Shown: positions 3,005 to 18,104, numbered from the stretch's first letter. The stretch is 18,104 nucleotides of DNA from Okeania sp. (GCF_035285525.1 NZ_JAYKGW010000069.1:1-18104), one strand, 5' to 3'. Numbers and translations are program-made. The notes: generated by a model not told the origin, from the letters alone.

Positions 3005-3128
3005 GTGGACTGTGGGAGGTGTGGGAAGTGTGGAAGGTGTCGAAGGTGTGGAAGGTGTGGAAGGTGTGGAAGGTGTGGAAGGTGTGGAAGGTGTGGGAAG
3101 TGTGGGAGGTATGGGAAGTGTGGAAAAA
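3005..3128 (+). repeat. Nonamer tandem array, ~13 units of GTGGAAGGT and variants (GTGGGAAGT, GTGGGAGGT, GTCGAAGGT), starting 10 nt after the stop codon of the 46-2994 gene
   Basis: Units were read in register from 3012 to 3128, including five consecutive perfect GTGGAAGGT (3048-3092). The array is stop-free in several frames, which explains the overlapping ORF-track calls. Confidence 0.95.
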
Positions 3129-6079: not shown

Positions 6080-8465
<2,386 letters not shown>

Positions 8466-9061
8466 TTAAAATTAAATTTACTTATTTTTTTATTATTACT
8501 TTACAAGTTGTTACAAAATTCAGCAACATCTAAATTAAGTTATTTCTGATTTTTCTGAACATACTTTCTTTTTTTTTCGTAAGCATTTTCTGGGTCGTGG
8601 TGCGCCAACAGCTATTAGCAATCAGCTCAAGGGAAAAATGAATGAAGCAGCACTGTTTTAACTTCTACTTTTCAACTATATATATTATCTGAAATTGTGA
8701 ACCAATATAGTTTACGGCCGGAAATTATAGATAGATGTCCCTCAGAAACTGTTAACGAAGTTCCTCCGTTAGGAGGCTAGCTGAATGCTGACTTTTTTTT
8801 CAGCCCATCTTTTTGACAAGAAAGAATAATTATGGTAATAGTACACCAAAATTAGCAATAAAGTTGTATTATTTTAATAAAGTATAAAAATACTAAGGTT
8901 AGCTGTTTAATATATAAAATATATAGATTAAGATTAGCAGACGAAGGTATTTTAAGAGCCAATAATAATATAGATTAGGCGGTGAGGCAATCCTCATAAA
9001 GACCAAAGAATTTGACACGATAAAATAATCAACAATAAGGACAGAACAAAAAAACTAAGGC

Positions 9062-11107
9062 ATGGGCAAAGTAGTCGGCATAGACCTGGGCACAACAAAC
9101 TCCGTAGTATCCGTCATGGAAGGCGGAAAGCCAATCGTAATAGCTAATTCAGAAGGAATGCGTACCACACCATCTGTAGTTGGCTTTACTAAGGAAGGAG
9201 AACGAATAGTGGGACAGATGGCCAGAAGGCAAACGGTTCTGAATCCCCAGAACACTTTCTATGGAGTCAAACGATACATTGGACGTAAATACTCTGAACT
9301 ATCACCAGAGTCAAAACGTGTCCCCTATACGATTCGCCGGGACGAATACGGCAATGTCAAAATTAAATGTCCTCGAATGAAACGAGATTTTGCTCCTGAA
9401 GAAGTCTCGGCTATGATATTGCGAAAATTGGCAGATGAAGCAAGTCGTTATTTGGGAGAAGAGGTAACAGGAGCAGTAATTACCGTACCAGCTTATTTTA
9501 ATGATTCTCAAAGACAAGCTACTCGTGATGCGGGGACTATTGCGGGTCTGGAAGTAAAACGTATTTTAAATGAACCAACTGCAGCATCTCTAGCTTATGG
9601 ATTAGAAAATACAGAAAATCAGGTAATTTTGGTCTTTGACTTGGGTGGAGGTACATTTGATGTTTCTATCTTGGAAGTAGGAGATGGAGTATTTGAAGTT
9701 AAAGCTACCAGTGGTGATACTCAACTAGGTGGAAATGATTTTGACCAACGAGTAGTTGATTGGTTAGCTGAACAATTTTTAGAAGCGGAAGGAATAGATT
9801 TAAGAACTGACCGTCAAGCTCTACAAAGACTGACTGAAGCTGCCGAAAAAGCCAAAATTGAATTATCTGGGGTGGGGGTGACAGAAATTAATCTCCCCTT
9901 TATTACGGCCACACCAGATGGTCCTAAACATCTGGAAACTAGGCTAACTCGCTCTCAATTTGAAGGACTTTGTGGAGATTTAGTTCCCAGAATCCGACGT
10001 CCAGTAAAAATGGCTTTGAAAGATGCTGGTATTAATCCTTCTATGATTGATGAGGTAGTATTAGTAGGAGGTTCAACTCGGATTCCTTTTGTCCAAGACT
10101 TAGTTTATTCTCTGATTGATAGAGAACCAAATCAGGGAGTTAATCCTGATGAAGTTGTGGCAGTGGGGGCAGCTATTCAGGCTGGTATTTTAGGTGGGGA
10201 TGTCCGAGATGTGTTATTATTAGACGTGACCCCATTGTCTGTAGGCTTAGAAACTATCGGGGGAGTGATGAAAAAACTTATTCCTCGAAATACTACTATT
10301 CCGGTACGACGTTCTGATATCTTTTCTACTGGCGAAAATAATCAAACCTTAGTTGAAATTCATGTAATTCAGGGAGAACGAGAAATAGCTGCTGATAATA
10401 AGTCTCTCGGAAAATTTAAACTTACCGGTATTCCACCTGCACCAAGGGGTGTCCCCCAGGTACAAGTTGCCTTTGATGTTGATGCTAATGGTATTTTGCA
10501 GGTAACGGCGATGGACAAAACTACTGGTAGGTCTCAAAGTATTACGATTCAAGGAGCTTCCACTTTAAGTCAGCAAGAAATTAGTCAGATGATTCGGGAT
10601 GCGGAAAAGTTTGCTGAAGCAGATCGACTGAAACGGGAGCGGGTAGATAAGCGTAATAAGGCTGAGGCTTTGGCCTTTCAAGCCGAACGACAACTCCGAG
10701 AGGTGGCCTTGGATTATGGGATGCAGTTTGCGGCCAGAAGTCGTCAACGGATTGAGATGTTGATTAGGGAACTGCGGGATAGTTTGGAACAGGATGATGA
10801 AAGGGGTATCGATCAGGTGGGGGTTGATTTACAAGATGCTCTCTACGATCTGAAACGTGAGATTTCAATTTATACTTCGGAAGAGAGTGATGATGATTTC
10901 TTTGGGTCTGTGCGCCGAACTATATCTGGGAATGAGCGTAAGTACAGGGAACGTTATGATTATGATTATGAACCTAGGGTTTATGATCGTCCTCCTGAGC
11001 GTCGAATTAGTAATCGTCCAACTCGTCCAACTCGTCCAACTCGTCCAACTCGTCCTTATCAAAGTCAAGATTGGGATAATGATGATGATGATGATGATTG
11101 GTTGTAA
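9062..11107 (+). CDS. dnaK: Hsp70 chaperone DnaK paralog with a non-canonical extended C-terminus (DnaK3-like, inferred from tail and linkage)
   Basis: [26 protein letters not shown] and [10 protein letters not shown] actin-fold ATPase motifs, plus a substrate-binding domain. The tail is ...[32 protein letters not shown] rather than a short acidic lid end. Confidence 0.93.
11015..11056 (+). repeat. In-frame nonamer repeat (CGTCCAACT x4 plus a partial unit) encoding (RPT)n in the DnaK tail; (GAT)6 follows at 11081-11098
   Basis: Units start at 11015, 11024, 11033 and 11042. The frame was checked against the 9062 start. Confidence 0.95.
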
Positions 11108-11109
11108 GA

Positions 11110-11137
11110 GGGAGTAGGGAGTAGGGAGTAGGGAGTA
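11110..11137 (+). repeat. STRR-type heptamer array (GGGAGTA) x4, beginning 2 nt after the dnaK stop codon
   Basis: Perfect units at 11110, 11117, 11124 and 11131. This is the exact reverse complement of the TACTCCC tract inside MITE copy A. Confidence 0.95.
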
Positions 11138-11707
11138 GTAATTGATAGTTTATGGATAAGAATTAATTTTATTTTTAATTTTTAGAGATGTCTATTGTGT
11201 ATTTTAGGTTAGGTAAAAGATACTTTTTTACTCTATTATTTAAAATGATATAGTGAACATCAAAAGTTATTGTATATTTAAAATTAAATAACTTAGTTAT
11301 TATGATGACTGAGGAGGTGAGAATTGAAAAATTTTCTAACTTAATCAGTAATTACTATATCTATAATTCTGGCTATCAAGTGAGAAGTATTAAATCTATA
11401 GTAGCAATCCTATATTCAAAATTTTTATAATAGTTAGTTTGAACTGATTTTTTTTAACTTCTCATTGTCTAACCATTAAATAAAATATTACAACTGAAAT
11501 AGAATTACTATACTAAGCCGTTCACCATTTAAACCCTATATTTGTTCTGTTCTTAGTTAAGAAGACAAACCTGATTAATTATTATGACTTATGACTCCTG
11601 ACATATAAGTTGCTGAAAAGCATTTTCAATATGTCTTAACTTATTTGTTTCAAGGAATGAAAAGAAAATATTTATTATTCAAACTACCTATAAGTTTAAG
11701 TTAGCAA

Positions 11708-12709
11708 ATGCAAAACTTTCGGAATTATTATCAGATTCTAGATGTTTCTAAAGATGCTTCAGTGGATGAAATCAAGAAAGCATATAGACGATTAGCACGA
11801 CAATTTCATCCAGATGTAAATCCAGGAAATAAACAGGCAGAAGAAAAGTTTAAAGATATTAATGAAGCTTACGATATTTTATCAGATTTAGACAAACGGG
11901 AAGAGTATGATAAGTTTATTCGATATTGGAAGCCAAAAGGAATTGGTAATAGAATGGGAGTACGGGTTCCCGATCTGAGAAATTGGGGAGATAATTTTTC
12001 TGGAAATAGTGGTAGGTTAGACAAGGATGTTGATGTTAGTGATTTTTCTGATTTTAATACTTTTGTAGACCAATTGTTGGGTCGTCGTCGGGAAGTTAAA
12101 ACTCCAGCAACGGCAGCAAAACTAAGAACTCAGTCGTCTAGTGTTTATCGCCCTACTCAAAAAAAAGCAGTTTATAAGGCGATGGAAAGGGAGGCTAAAA
12201 AGGATATTGAGGCTAAGTTGACTTTGCCTCTGGAAAAGGCTTATGTGGGAGGGGTTGAGAAAATACGTTTGGAGGATGGACGGTCTATAGAGGTAAATAT
12301 GCCTGCTGCTATGGTTAGTGGTCAAAGGATTCGTCTGAAAAATCAGGGCATTGGTGGGGGAGATTTGTATTTGAAAATTACGGTCGCTCCTCATGGTTTT
12401 TATCAGTTGGAGGGGGCGGACATTTTTTGTGAGTTGCCTATTACTCTTGTGGAGGCTGTTTTGGGTGGGGATGTTGAGGTTCCGACTTTGGATGGTTGGG
12501 TGAAGATGAAGTTGCCTCCAGGGGTGGTTTCTGGTCAACGTTTACGACTTGCGAGTAAGGGGTATCCTGATGGGAAGGGGGAGCGTGGAGACCAGTTGGT
12601 GGAGATTAAGATTGTGACTCCGAAGCAGCTTAGTGAGGAGGAGTTGGAGATATATCAGAAGTTACGGGATGTTGAGAGGTTTAAGCCACGAAAGGATTTG
12701 CCTGTTTGA
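11708..12709 (+). CDS. dnaJ: DnaJ-family co-chaperone lacking the Cys-rich zinc-finger domain (type II / CbpA-like, DnaJ3-like by linkage)
   Basis: J domain [35 protein letters not shown] with an HPD loop. No CxxCxGxG repeats. C-terminal substrate-binding domains present ([38 protein letters not shown]...). Confidence 0.9.
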
Positions 12710-14284: not shown

Positions 14285-16777
14285 ATGAATTTAATTCCTC
14301 ATCAATGTCAAGATTTACAAAATCAGGTAGAAAATCTACTGCAATTATTGCATCAAGAGCCTACTTTGAGACACGAAGATACAACGGCTGTTCGCTCTTC
14401 TTTAAATAAAGTAATTTCTCCAAAATTTGAAATAGTATTTGCTGGTGCTTTTAGTGCAGGAAAGTCGATGTTGATTAATGCTTTATTAGGTAGAGAATTA
14501 CTCTATAGTGCGGAAGGTCATGCCACAGGAACCGAATGTTATATTGAATATGCTGAACCTGAAAAAGAAAGAGTGGTTTTGACATTTTTAAGTATTGCTG
14601 AAATTCAGGAACAAGTATCAGTTTTAAGGAGGCAATTAGGTTTAGACTCGAATGCAAATATTGAACAATCAGAGGTGATTGGAATTATTCGGGAACAATG
14701 TAATGCAATTATTAAAAATGAAGGAGGGGAAAATAAATCGGAACGCGCTAAACAAGCAAAGGCATTAAAGTTATTGGTGGATGGTTTTGAGGCAAATCAA
14801 GAATGTATTCATCCGATGCAAAATTCTATTTTTTCAATGGAACAGTTTAATTTTTCTAACCTGAAGGAAGCAGCTAGTTATGCGCGAAGAGGAATGAATA
14901 GTGCTGTGTTGAAGAAGGTGGAATATTATTGTCATCATCCTTTATTAGAGGATGGAAATGTCATTATTGATACTCCCGGAATTGATGCTCCTGTGGAGAA
15001 GGATGCTCAAGTTACTTATGACAAAATAGAGAACCCAGACACTTCGGCTGTTGTTTGTGTTTTGAAGCCTGCTGCTGCTGGAGATATGACAACTGAGGAA
15101 ACAGAATTATTGGAAAAAATGCGAGAAAATCCTGGTATTAGAGATAGGGTTTTTTATGTTTTTAATCGCATAGATGAAACTTGGTATAATTCTCAACTTC
15201 GACAAAGATTAGAAAGTTTGATTATTTCTGATTTTAGAGATACGGAAAGGATTTATAAAACCAGTGGTTTATTAGGTTTTTATGGCAGTTTAATTAAAGA
15301 GACAAGTCGAGGCGATCGCTTTGGTTTGGATACTATATTTGTTAATAGTGTTAAAGGTTTGGATGGAGAGGAGGAAACGCCACAGTTTGTTTATGCTTTT
15401 AATAATTATTGTGGAACTTCTCGGAAACTTCCTAGTAATTTTCGGGTAAGTATTAATGGTTTTGAGTCGCCTAATGAAAATTATGTCAGGATTTTAGATG
15501 AGTGGGGAAAACCGTTAATTGAACAATTAATTATTGATAGTGGAATAGAGGAGTTTCGGAATGGAATTACTCGTTATCTGAAGGAGGAGAAACGCCCGCA
15601 GTTATTTGCAAATTTGGCAGATGATTTACAAAGTATCTGTATACAATTACAGAAAAATTATTTAGGAACTCAGCGAGATTTGGCAAGTCAACCTCAAGAA
15701 ATAGAGGCGATGAAAGCTCAGGAATTATTGTTATTAAATTCTCAACTCCAAGAGGTGGGTGAGGGATTTAGTCAACATATTTCTGAGGAAGTAAATTTGT
15801 TAGTCACAAATAAATGTGATGGTTTTGAGGCTGATTTTAATCAACTCCAATCTCGAATGATTCGTCGTTTAGATGAACTGTTAGATACTTTTTCTGTGGA
15901 AGCTGCTTATAGTCGAGCAACTATTAATCATCCCCGGAATGCAACGGCTCCTTTATTGGCAGTTTTAGTAGAGGCACTTTATTATTTAGCTAATCAATTA
16001 GAGGATATTTTAGTTGATTCTACTCAGTTAGTAGTAACTGGATTTTTTCAACGTTTAATTGATAGGGTTCGCAAGTCAGAATATTATCGACAACTCTATC
16101 GTTTGTTAGGTAATGATGGAGGGATTGAAAAGCATTTAAAGGAGGTAGAAAAAGAAGTTAGTACGGCATTAATAAGTGCGGCGCGAATAGAATGTGATAG
16201 GTTTGTACGAGAAAGTCCGCGTTTTTATGATGAAGGAACTTTTTCTATTTATCAGTTTCGCCAGACTTTATTACAGACTTCTCAAAGTTTTGATTGTAGT
16301 AGTATGGTGGAGGCGGAACCTGCAATTAGACAATTGTTGAAGTTAGATTTTGAGCCAAAAGTTTCTAAGACTATTCGGCAAACTTTTCGGCAAACTGTGA
16401 ATCAAACTTTGAAGACTAATTTATTACCAATGGCTGAAAAACAAGGGGAGGATATTATGCAGCAATATAATCAAGCGCGGAAATATTTAGAGCAAAGTTT
16501 GGAGAAGGAAGCTACTGAGAAAATTCAGAGAAATTTACGTTTTCAAGTTGAGGTTGAGGAGAAGATTAAGGTTTATAATCGGATAGTTTCTTATATTAAT
16601 GGTTGTCTCCAGGCAATGTTGTTGAATGAGCGACAGTTGCCAATTATTTCTGAGTTTGATTTTGGCAAAAGTGAGGAAAATTTGGAAGTGGTAAGTAGTG
16701 AGAATGAGAAGTTATTGGAAAGTGAGGAAGTCTCGCCTCTTGATGATTTACGTCAAAAGATGAATTTGAATAGTTAG
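14285..16777 (+). CDS. Bacterial dynamin-like GTPase (BDLP/DynA-type large GTPase) with a long helical stalk and a KGK-type C-terminal tail
   Basis: G1 P-loop GAFSAGKS (14444-14467), G3 DTPG (14969-14980), G4-like NRID (15164-15175). These are followed by ~500 aa of helical, Glu/Gln/Leu-rich sequence. No convincing TM segment by eye. Confidence 0.85.
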   Translation: MNLIPHQCQDLQNQVENLLQLLHQEPTLRHEDTTAVRSSLNKVISPKFEIVFAGAFSAGKSMLINALLGRELLYSAEGHATGTECYIEYAEPEKERVVLTFLSIAEIQEQVSVLRRQLGLDSNANIEQSEVIGIIREQCNAIIKNEGGENKSERAKQAKALKLLVDGFEANQECIHPMQNSIFSMEQFNFSNLKEAASYARRGMNSAVLKKVEYYCHHPLLEDGNVIIDTPGIDAPVEKDAQVTYDKIENPDTSAVVCVLKPAAAGDMTTEETELLEKMRENPGIRDRVFYVFNRIDETWYNSQLRQRLESLIISDFRDTERIYKTSGLLGFYGSLIKETSRGDRFGLDTIFVNSVKGLDGEEETPQFVYAFNNYCGTSRKLPSNFRVSINGFESPNENYVRILDEWGKPLIEQLIIDSGIEEFRNGITRYLKEEKRPQLFANLADDLQSICIQLQKNYLGTQRDLASQPQEIEAMKAQELLLLNSQLQEVGEGFSQHISEEVNLLVTNKCDGFEADFNQLQSRMIRRLDELLDTFSVEAAYSRATINHPRNATAPLLAVLVEALYYLANQLEDILVDSTQLVVTGFFQRLIDRVRKSEYYRQLYRLLGNDGGIEKHLKEVEKEVSTALISAARIECDRFVRESPRFYDEGTFSIYQFRQTLLQTSQSFDCSSMVEAEPAIRQLLKLDFEPKVSKTIRQTFRQTVNQTLKTNLLPMAEKQGEDIMQQYNQARKYLEQSLEKEATEKIQRNLRFQVEVEEKIKVYNRIVSYINGCLQAMLLNERQLPIISEFDFGKSEENLEVVSSENEKLLESEEVSPLDDLRQKMNLNS

Positions 16778-16825
16778 GGGAATTTTTTAGTAAGTATTTA
16801 GCCATAAAGTAAACATTAAGAAGTT

Positions 16826-16958
16826 AGCTATAGCAATTCTAAATAGTTTGTAAGATTTTATCGTAGGGGTTTGGTCTCCAAACCCAAGTGCCGAGAGATT
16901 TGGAAACTAAACCCCTAAAGTTTTTTCTCACAAATTATTTTATGTTGCTATATCAGCT
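16826..16958. repeat. 133-bp long imperfect inverted repeat (hairpin-forming element) 49 nt after the dynamin-like gene
   Basis: The left arm AGCTATAGCAATTCTAAATAGTTTGTAAG (16826-16854) pairs with the right arm CTCACAAATTATTTTATGTTGCTATATCAGCT (16927-16958) at roughly 24 of 30 positions. The core holds nested stems. Confidence 0.8.
16865..16926 (+). terminator. Probable terminator of the dynamin-like gene, embedded in the long palindrome
   Basis: AGGGGTTT (16865-16872) pairs with AAACCCCT (16909-16916), followed by AAAG and T6 (16921-16926). Inner alternative hairpin GTTTGG-TCT-CCAAAC. Confidence 0.55.
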
Positions 16959-17369
16959 ATTAGTTTTATTGCTTTTAGTTGGCAAATAGAGCTACTTGCT
17001 TTTGTTCTTAAATTATCTAGTTGAAAATGTAGTAGAAGTTAAGCGAATATTTGCTTTATTCATTAAAAATATGTTTGCGTAGTATTCCGCAGAAAAAGTT
17101 TAATATTAATAGCTGAATCAGTTATTTCTGAGAGAAGGAGGTAAAAGCAATTGAAAAATTTAGAGAGAGTTAAAAGTTACTGAAAAAGTAAGATTATTTA
17201 ATTTTAGAAGGAATTATTCATTATTTGCTGAAGTCTTTACTGTTAAGAGTTGGTTGTGCAGCATTCCGCAGGAAATGTTTACATTTTTTATCTGAAAAAA
17301 GTGTAGAATATTTTTGAGGTATCCTAGAATTACTCGCTAAATATTTTATTGGAAACGGAGAAATTAAAA

Positions 17370-17799
17370 ATGGCAAATAATTCAGATAATCAAGAATTTA
17401 TTTTTCTGGAGGGAGAAGAGCTTGTTAAACTCGATAAAAAAAACATATAACCAATTAAATTTATCTGGAAACAACTTTGATAATTTACATCTAGTAATTG
17501 AACAATTAAAGCCAGTAATTATTCAAAGAGTGCTAAATGATAATAATTTAAAAAATCAGTTATTTGGAGATGGTATAGATATAGAATCTGAGATTTTGAA
17601 ACCAGGTAAACAATGGCAAAAAGGGAAAATTAAGGTAGAACTTAATTTCAAATTTTACCCTGATGAACCTGAAGCAAAAATCGAACAAAAACAATTAAAT
17701 CAGTTAGAAAGTTCTAGTGATAATAATTCTGAAGTTTTGGAAACTGAAGTATCTCCACTTGATGATTTACGGCAAAAATTTAATCAGGAAAATCAGTAG
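17370..17799 (+). pseudogene. KGK-domain protein gene, read as two frames joined at an A8 run (frameshifted pseudogene, slippage-dependent gene, or sequencing error)
   Basis: ATG 17370 has GGAG 9 nt upstream and opens a 26-codon ORF (MANNSDNQEFIFLEGEELVKLDKKNI*) ending at 17450. The 17422-17799 frame has no Met codon at all but encodes the KGK core (GDGIDIESEILKPGKQWQKGKIKVELNFKFYPDEPE). Removing one A from 17436-17443 fuses them into ~142 aa. Confidence 0.6.
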
Positions 17800-17846
17800 A
17801 AACTTTCTAGGATAAAATTAATTTGTGTAGGAGATTTTTTCCCAGT
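17719..17846 (+). repeat. Direct repeat copy 1 (KGK tail coding region plus ~47 bp of 3' flank)
   Basis: Near-identical to 17978-18104 (offset 259/258 bp) with a few substitutions and one 1-nt indel. Confidence 0.9.
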
Positions 17847-17911: not shown

Positions 17912-18049
17912 GAAACTTTAGAAGAAATAGAAGAAAATGAATCAAGTCATTTAAAGAATGAAGAAAAAAATTCTGGGGATAATAATTCTGAAGTTCTAGA
18001 AACTGAAGTATCTCCACTTGATGATTTACGGCAAAAATTTAATCAGTAA
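17912..18049 (+). pseudogene. Start-less orphan tail cassette encoding ETLEEIEENESSHLKNEEKNSGDNNSEVLETEVSPLDDLRQKFNQ*
   Basis: Open frame runs from just after the TGA at 17909-17911 to the TAA at 18047-18049. It has no ATG/GTG/TTG start in frame and no KGK core. A G-to-T change relative to the intact copy creates the earlier stop. Confidence 0.55.
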
Positions 18050-18104
18050 AATCAGTAGAAACTTTCTAGGAGAAAATTGATTTGTGCAGGAGATTTTTCC
18101 CAGT
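17978..18104 (+). repeat. Direct repeat copy 2; runs to the window edge
   Basis: GATAATAATTCTGAAGTTCTAGAAACTGAAGTATCTCCACTTGATGATTTACGGCAAAAATTTAATCAG... matches 17719 onward. Confidence 0.9.

Follow-up and report, generated by a model that had tools for sequence, protein, structure and literature searches.

A KGK-type C-terminal tail on a cyanobacterial dynamin-like GTPase, a putative docking helix shared with the neighbouring KGK family

Results

The dynamin-KGK gene pair of an Okeania contig

The DNA analysed here, an 18.1-kb contig of an Okeania sp. metagenome-assembled genome (MAG) that we call the window (positions are given in whole-stretch numbering), carries a gene for a dynamin-like protein (DLP) and, downstream on the same strand, a gene of the KGK family (Table 1). 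Both proteins end in the same short peptide, EVSPLDDLRQK, and this shared tail, a putative docking helix, is the subject of this study.

The DLP matches Dynamin_N in Pfam (E = 1.3e-17) and aligns colinearly with chain 7zw6_A of the PDB in a phmmer search (E = 0, 1102 bits, query 2-798 to chain 2-800). By this colinear alignment, it has the full-length SynDLP-type architecture, in which bundle signalling elements (BSE), the GTPase domain (GD) and the stalk follow one another as BSE1-GD-BSE2-stalk-BSE3. C8 and C774 are unchanged in all 56 aligned orthologues, C774 being aligned with the cysteine of SynDLP CLKAM, and orthologues at 70-91% identity were found across cyanobacteria. An extended P-loop is present at residues 54-68 (GAFSAGKSMLINALL); such a loop, GxxxxGKS/TxL/INALL/I, is a trait of the KGK-clade bacterial DLPs (BDLPs) (PMC5827413). 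In the AlphaFold2 (AF2) model of the window DLP, built on a 56-sequence alignment with a mean predicted local distance difference test score (pLDDT) of 78.8, the GTPase domain and a long helical stalk/BSE are folded up to about residue 790, and residues 793-819 are disordered (pLDDT <50).

A 'KGK clade' of cyanobacterial DLPs, defined by a downstream KGK gene, has been described by Jilly et al. 2018 (PMC5827413). Gewehr et al. 2023 assigned SynDLP (Slr0869 of Synechocystis) to this clade and reported its cryo-EM structure (PDB 7ZW6), in which the last 19 residues are unresolved, as well as its GTP hydrolysis, nucleotide-independent oligomerisation and membrane binding (PMC10104851). The window gene pair is a member of this already known clade, since all of the defining features that can be tested are found in it. 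With SynDLP it shares full-length orthology, the extended P-loop, the cysteine pair that forms a BSE disulfide in SynDLP (mutant C777A), a KGK gene directly downstream and a disordered C-terminal extension. The statement of the original prediction, made from this DNA without database searches, that no dynamin-KGK module had been described was therefore mistaken, as the linkage and a structure had been published (PMC5827413, PMC10104851). The clade as published concerns gene order only, and the shared peptide is not mentioned.

Two other dynamin families were considered and rejected. Eleos (LeoA/LeoBC) and DynA, which act in anti-phage defence or membrane repair, are likewise dynamin-superfamily GTPases, but the PADLOC matches of the DLP are confined to the P-loop region (LeoA 31 bits, residues 15-70 only; LeoBC 25 bits) and the partner genes are absent, and its NCBIfam DynmDynABac score of 45.5 bits against a cut-off of 1600 excludes a DynA-type two-headed BDLP. 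No defence genes were found in the neighbourhood of the DLP.

The KGK gene is frameshifted as assembled. Its true start is the ATG at 17370 (MANNSDNQEF...; the intact orthologues P0122-P0132 begin MAENSDNQEF), and frame 0 stops at 17448-17450; orthologous DNA has GAT GAA CAG ACA TAC at the site where the window reads GATAAAAAAAACAT. The single surplus A of the A8 run may reflect a genuine pseudogene, an error in MAG assembly or a site of transcriptional slippage; a +1 shift or the loss of one A would bring the gene back into frame. The 125-aa open reading frame (ORF) of the public annotation (P0121; 17422-17799, + strand, TTG start), which ends in SSDNNSEVLETEVSPLDDLRQKFNQENQ, is a truncated reading of this gene. 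When repaired in frame, the 142-aa protein matches PF08872 with E = 1e-12 and 49 bits against a cut-off of 25.6, and the orthologues P0121-P0145 all carry PF08872. The match reaches position 118 of the 119 in the model, indicating that the tail, with its SPLDDLR region, belongs to the Pfam KGK family model. The statements of the original prediction that SPLDD[IL]R after an acidic linker is the native KGK C-terminus, and that the GTPase carries a tail of this type, are borne out. The window differs from the family as described by Pfam in that its KGK gene is frameshifted and in that the tail is also found detached from the KGK domain, on the dynamin and as tail-only debris.

Table 1 Features of the dynamin-KGK region in the window
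Feature	Position	Strand	Description
DLP gene	14285..16777	+	830 aa, ends SSENEKLLESEEVSPLDDLRQKMNLNS; Pfam Dynamin_N, SynDLP orthologue
Start of the native disordered C-terminal extension of DLP, after BSE3	16661..16693	+	residues ~793-803; pLDDT <50; varies among orthologues
Tail on DLP, probably KGK-derived	16694..16774	+	SSENEKLLESEEVSPLDDLRQKMNLNS, residues 804-830; aligns with KGK tails over ~27 residues
Motif core on DLP, EVSPLDDLRQK	16727..16759	+	residues 815-825
DLP-KGK intergenic spacer	16778..17369	.	592 nt; MITE-like inverted repeat and dispersed repeat
KGK-family gene (PF08872)	17370..17799	+	592 nt after DLP stop; 142 aa once one A is removed from A8
A8 homopolymer with +1 nt frameshift	17436..17443	+	from sequence reading and orthologue comparison
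KGK acidic linker end and tail	17713..17796	+	SSDNNSEVLETEVSPLDDLRQKFNQENQ; motif core 17746-17778
Third, dead KGK-tail copy with ~40 nt of 3' flank	17967..18101	+	motif core 18005-18037; reaches contig end

The two tails are alike as proteins and differ as DNA

We compared the two motif cores codon by codon. The 11 amino acids are identical, and the 11 codons differ at five nucleotides (GTC/GTA, TCG/TCT, CCT/CCA, CGT/CGG and AAG/AAA), all of them third-position and synonymous. When five random substitutions were placed in the 33-nt segment in 200,000 trials, all five were synonymous in 0.03% of trials under a uniform model and in 0.07% under a transition-biased one (kappa = 2), a chance of about 3-7e-4. 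The likeness extends beyond the core over ~27 residues (SS[ED]N..LE[ST]E-EVSPLDDLRQK.N), and the flanks of the two copies are unrelated. The all-synonymous pattern and the unrelated flanks indicate that the peptide is selected at the protein level and is no recent DNA copy. The original prediction had claimed as much, and its coordinates, its C-terminal sequences, the 11-residue identity and the count of silent differences were all reproduced, as was its assignment of the two proteins to Dynamin_N and KGK.

The dynamin tail is confined to one clade and is under constraint

To see where the tail occurs on dynamins, we used 120 database orthologues and a sample of 80 genomic DLP loci from species-representative genomes, plus the window. 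EVSPLDDLRQ is the ending of just two database orthologues, the closest ones (90-91% identity), and all those at 79% identity or below have a different, variable acidic C-terminus. Among the genomic loci, tailed DLPs are present at nine in addition to the window, in Okeania, Dapis and three MAGs, and end in E[VI]S[PS]LDDL[RK]..MNLNS. In Trichodesmium erythraeum IMS101 and a second Trichodesmium MAG (2 loci), a change of GAA to TAA has created a stop codon immediately ahead of the motif; beyond it lie a remnant of the tail that is still colinear but decayed (MWSIGDLGKQINVN) and the 3' flank seen in the window. The other DLP loci examined (68) have no trace of the tail. The distribution suggests that the tail was gained once in the ancestor of the clade. 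Trichodesmium later lost it through the nonsense mutation, and the colinear decay of the motif there displays what lost constraint looks like.

In the genomes that have kept it, the tail evolves differently. Across the 10 genomes with a tailed DLP, which have a synonymous divergence of 0.3-0.4, the ratio of nonsynonymous to synonymous differences (pN/pS) is 0.17 in the motif and 0.21 over the last 16 codons, compared with 0.22 in the folded BSE3 segment and 0.48 in the preceding linker. The DLP tail is thus as constrained as folded protein, and it is held by purifying selection in at least 10 genomes. One of the tailed DLPs, that of O. hirsuta, has no KGK gene or KGK debris within 6-10 kb.

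The residues that follow the motif bear on the age of the tail. All DLP tails end in ..QMNLNS, all local KGK proteins in ..KFNQENQ, and the KGK proteins of neighbouring genera in ..RRMMNENS. Because the DLP endings are unlike those of the local KGK proteins and resemble those of the neighbouring genera, they point to an old graft and not to ongoing conversion. We infer that the tail arose by a single, old, in-frame graft of ~27 KGK codons onto the disordered C-terminal extension of the DLP, which would be placed in the common ancestor of Okeania, Dapis and Trichodesmium.

Two loci contain rearranged pieces of these sequences. Locus L009 has hybrid debris at ~8671-8790, in which a KGK-type linker (SDNHNSENM*IE) is followed by the end of a DLP-type tail (VSPLDDLPPQMKLNS*) and by a DLP-type 3' flank, as if the two tail copies had recombined. 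In locus L012 (Trichodesmium MAG_R02), the 3' end of the DLP with its decayed tail occurs three times among the KGK genes (8101-8487, 9137-9358 and 11844-12068), indicating that local segmental duplication involves the end of the dynamin too.

The tail is the most constrained element of the KGK protein

The KGK protein has three parts: a small alpha/beta domain, whose N-terminal half evolves fast, then an acidic linker that is disordered, and finally a C-terminal amphipathic helix with the pattern [ED]-S-P-L-D-D-[LI]-R-x-x-hydrophobic, which is kept from Nostoc to Microcoleus to Okeania (Oscillatoriales and Nostocales). The linker and the helix, a feature derived here and not part of the Pfam description, were found in 70 KGK ORFs (100-175 aa) at the DLP loci and in at least 18 metagenome KGK proteins. 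KGK paralogues whose overall identity is just 36-68% hardly differ in the tail.

We measured the constraint in 12 Microcoleus genomes, in which paralogue conversion is no factor because each has a single KGK gene. There, pN/pS is 0.02 in the tail (pS 0.28), 0.22 in the core, 0.25 in the linker and 0.62 in the N-terminal half of the KGK protein, and 0.11 in the DLP. No other element of the KGK protein is as constrained as its tail.

The AF2 model of the intact KGK orthologue P0122 (mean pLDDT 64.5) is disordered at residues 109-132 and has a helix at 134-144, on PLDDLRQKFNQ; in the window DLP the modelled helix spans residues 819-825, on LDDLRQK. Both models therefore predict a disordered linker and then a short helix exactly on the motif. 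A Foldseek search of the PDB with the KGK body of the P0122 model gave no significant match (best E-value 0.77), the MDM2-like matches being noise (probability 0.33 or less), and a PDB sequence search with the KGK body found nothing.

KGK domains occur in one or two copies per protein, and P0176 (263 aa, Trichodesmium-type) fits this as a fusion of two KGK domains, which has kept the tail on the second unit only and lost it from the first.

Linkage of KGK genes to the dynamin

A tailed KGK ORF, scored by the C-terminal pattern [ED]-[SP]-[PS]-L-D-[DE]-[LI]-R, lies directly downstream of the DLP, with a gap of 50-650 nt, in 47-50 of the 71 loci that have enough downstream sequence for the KGK profile. 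In a metagenome sample, which is not a census, a DNA pattern for ESPLDDLR in contigs recovered at least 18 KGK tails, and among the matches listed a DLP was directly upstream at 8 of the 10 loci with sufficient upstream sequence. The original prediction had named as adverse the case in which orthologous dynamins generally lack the tail and lie apart from KGK genes; the first half of this describes what we found (no tail at 68 of the 80 loci, remnants at 2) and the second does not. DLP C-termini showed no systematic difference between loci with and without an adjacent KGK gene.

Tailed KGK genes with no DLP beside them were seen at L108 (2669-2974) and L117 (3466-3891), one of them following genes for a DUF3352 protein and for cytochrome c assembly, the other next to a gene for a GH2 glycosidase.

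The motif is specific

A HMMER profile of the tail, made from the three window copies, was run exhaustively against 1.84 billion representative proteins at E 0.001 or better and returned 18 matches, all KGK proteins or fragments (53-263 aa) and one C-terminal DLP fragment; as this library is clustered at 50% identity, tailed members behind tail-less representatives would escape. A tail-only word-index protein search returned short proteins only and missed known full-length carriers, so that long carriers are not excluded by it, and isolated 45-aa tails are too short to score in Pfam. Among the metagenome matches listed, no other family had the motif at its C-terminus, the remainder being random ORFs, and the viral contigs gave three pattern matches for phage-encoded mimics of the tail, none of them KGK-like. 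In the representative proteins and the metagenome matches listed, the motif is essentially confined to KGK proteins and the dynamin of this clade; it is no ubiquitous protein ending, an outcome that the original prediction had named as adverse to it.

The only other recurrent match among the metagenome matches listed was an internal ATTESPLDDLRHH in a conserved enzyme of ~480-520 aa unrelated to KGK. This ATTESPLDDLR[HY]H enzyme (loci L088, L091-L095 and others) is a chance identity, which would contaminate naive censuses of the motif.

The tail is part of a duplicating module in this clade

The third tail copy of the window has 93% DNA identity to 17708-17842. It lacks both a start codon and the KGK body, and a TAA in place of GAA after FNQ gives it an internal stop. 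Such copies are common in the clade: a single Okeania, Dapis or Trichodesmium locus can hold as many as 5 intact KGK genes and as many as 8 short fragments, compared with 1-3 KGK genes per locus and almost no fragments outside it. The recurring unit is a module of ~130 nt made of the linker end, the tail and ~40 nt of non-coding 3' flank. Our alignment of this module comprises 45 copies, taken from the window and 9 related loci, and stop codons or R-to-P, D-to-Y or P-to-L changes have inactivated many of them. The frameshifted KGK gene and the dead third copy of the window belong to this module turnover.

Neighbouring genes and repeats

The spacer between the DLP and KGK genes contains an inverted repeat at 16829-16952 resembling a miniature inverted-repeat transposable element (MITE), with 54-nt arms, and a dispersed repeat of ~100 nt (17002-17118 and 17251-17296), the 17002-17118 element of which is present twice upstream of the DLP in O. 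hirsuta. Rfam, promoter and terminator scans of the region found nothing.

Upstream of the DLP, on the same strand, lie dnaK (NCBIfam PRK13410-type, 1205 bits) and a class-B-like dnaJ (9062-12709). The order dnaK-dnaJ-DLP-KGK was observed in Oscillatoriales (Okeania, Trichodesmium, Microcoleus and Tychonema, e.g. L034 1864-5613) and was not seen in the Nostocales loci; a functional link of dnaK-dnaJ to the dynamin is possible. The C-terminus of this DnaK paralogue has an RPT repeat (9-nt tandem, 4.7 copies, 11014-11107) and then an acidic run, which is unusual for Hsp70.

At the other end of the window, a gene at 46-2994 encodes a 982-aa M48/HtpX-like membrane peptidase with a long, low-complexity N-terminal extension. 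It includes a 195-nt tandem duplication at 377-764 (96% match), and its translation seems to hold a further duplicated segment. A 9-nt tandem array, TGTGGAAGG, of 12.8 copies is located just downstream of the peptidase gene (3011-3125).

Discussion

With its short amphipathic helix (L-x-x-L-R-x-x-hydrophobic) at the end of a flexible acidic leash, the KGK tail has the anatomy of a docking motif. We consider it more likely than not that the tail serves as a docking helix for a single conserved receptor, most probably the dynamin assembly, and that the DLP tail is one old graft. On a flexible leash, the tail would tie whatever bears it to that receptor. We favour the dynamin assembly as the receptor because its gene is the neighbour of the KGK gene and because the protein is oligomeric, with a flexible C-terminus nearby, and unusually well conserved (at least 70% identity throughout the phylum). 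In that case the KGK proteins would serve as interchangeable accessory heads on a tether to the dynamin, and the built-in tail of the Okeania-lineage dynamin may compete with them, as a form of self-regulation, or may link neighbouring protomers. The functional proposal of the original prediction, of a common docking partner or of competition or regulation by the small protein, is plausible. The tailed DLP of O. hirsuta, which has no nearby KGK gene, counts for a function of the tail that is independent of a linked KGK.

Docking of this kind has analogues among other membrane-remodelling proteins. The proline-rich C-terminal region of eukaryotic dynamin binds SH3 proteins, and Drp1 has receptors. 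There too, a short linear motif on a disordered C-terminal extension recruits small partner proteins, by analogy and not by homology; the motif is polyproline there, whereas here it is an acidic amphipathic helix whose interaction is putative. In ESCRT-III, the MIT-interacting motif 1 (MIM1), (D/E)xxLxxRLxxL(K/R), binds MIT domains. It likewise belongs to a membrane-remodelling protein and follows an acidic disordered linker as a short C-terminal helix with L-x-x-L-R-x-x-hydrophobic spacing, but the register is not the same, and the likeness is a lead only.

Several observations weigh against this reading or limit the evidence for it. The DLP tail is dispensable in some genomes, as Trichodesmium has lost it. 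About 21 Nostoc-type DLP loci have no KGK gene within 6 kb, and among the metagenome matches listed 2 of 10 KGK genes adjoin unrelated housekeeping genes, which shows that linkage to the DLP in cis is no requirement. In the AF2 model of the natural DLP chain with its tail, the tail is undocked at low confidence (pLDDT 26-44, ~50-60 on the helix), although the test is a weak one, with a monomer and only 3 tailed sequences in the alignment. When DLP columns were compared with the tail variants (P or S before LDD), three rare residues (27, 622 and 626) were common to two independent xSLDDLR lineages; background homoplasy gives similar counts, and we rejected covariation as evidence for a DLP receptor. 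Furthermore, the KGK tails of the clade are homogenised at the DNA level along with their non-coding flank, indicating that tail identity among the clade paralogues is partly due to concerted evolution. The argument for selection consequently rests on the comparison of the DLP with the KGK copy, on the constraint of the DLP tail and on Microcoleus, and not on the clade paralogues.

Some of the same observations would suit a different receptor. The tail may bind a third conserved component, such as a membrane protein or the upstream DnaK/DnaJ, and not the dynamin; KGK would be an adaptor that touches the dynamin with its body and this component with its tail, and the graft would be a bypass of it; we regard this as a serious but clearly less likely explanation. 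By Rosetta-stone logic, it is consistent with the fusion of the tail alone and not of the KGK body, with the persistence of the tailed DLP in O. hirsuta, with the tailed KGK genes that lie away from any DLP and with a tail that AF2 does not dock on the DLP in cis. The pseudogene debris that fills the KGK arrays of the clade, and the frameshift in the KGK gene of the window, fit as well, since a bypassed adaptor would explain the decay or loss of KGK in the lineage. The chaperone genes are upstream on the same strand at 31 of 82 loci, all of Oscillatoriales type. However, their synteny is absent from Nostocales loci that have DLP and KGK, no candidate is conserved across all DLP-KGK loci, and most tailed-DLP genomes still have several intact KGK genes. 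An acidic helix is also unlike a typical Hsp70 client peptide, which counts against DnaK as the partner.

A more elaborate scheme, which we think improbable, would make the tail a portable docking helix for fast-diversifying, exchangeable KGK 'heads', shuffled and duplicated in Okeania, Dapis and Trichodesmium by means of the constant ~130-nt module, within a dynamin-centred system for sensing, repair or defence whose adaptors turn over like cassettes. Each head would direct the dynamin to, or trigger it at, its own kind of structure, be it cellular or derived from an invader, and the Okeania tail would act as an auto-inhibitory pseudo-ligand, keeping the dynamin inactive until a KGK head displaces it.

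The tail could instead be a stability or sorting signal, for example a C-terminal degron read by a protease or unfoldase, or a localisation or export tag, by which the dynamin gained co-regulated turnover or targeting. Such a signal would be expected to be strongly constrained and to sit on a disordered leash at the very C-terminus of proteins that are unrelated in other respects, as the motif does. Yet 5-13 variable residues separate the motif from the true C-terminus, a misfit with carboxylate-anchored degrons and PDZ-type signals, and the neighbourhood has no conserved gene for a protease, an unfoldase or secretion; the M48 peptidase of the window is 11 kb off and is not syntenic in the O. 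hirsuta locus. We consider this explanation quite unlikely. That the dynamin tail is a neutral by-product of recent DNA duplication or gene conversion is very hard to uphold, for although the locus duplicates its tail and 3' flank repeatedly and the L009 hybrid (~8713) shows recombination between DLP and KGK copies, the two window copies differ at 5 of 33 sites, all synonymous, between unrelated flanks, the DLP tail has been kept at a pN/pS of about 0.2 over the divergence of the 10 genomes, and the motif decays quickly where constraint is lifted, as in Trichodesmium and the debris copies.

In the literature that we searched, there was no mention of a KGK C-terminal motif, and 'SPLDDLR' was absent. 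As far as the searchable literature shows, two points are new: that the C-terminal helix is the key constrained element of the KGK family, and that a dynamin has captured it in one lineage. The finding overturns nothing, as the gene pair itself was already known.

In summary, the only strongly constrained part of KGK proteins is a C-terminal helix of 8-11 residues on a flexible leash. One lineage appears to have welded this helix onto its dynamin, which, as Rosetta-stone-type evidence, suggests that the dynamin and the KGK tail may act in one complex. Natural controls are available in the tail-less Trichodesmium DLP, the tailed Okeania DLP and O. hirsuta, which has no linked KGK. For KGK, a cyanobacteria-specific family of unknown function, the tail is the first concrete, testable handle on its role and on a possible regulation of SynDLP-type dynamins.

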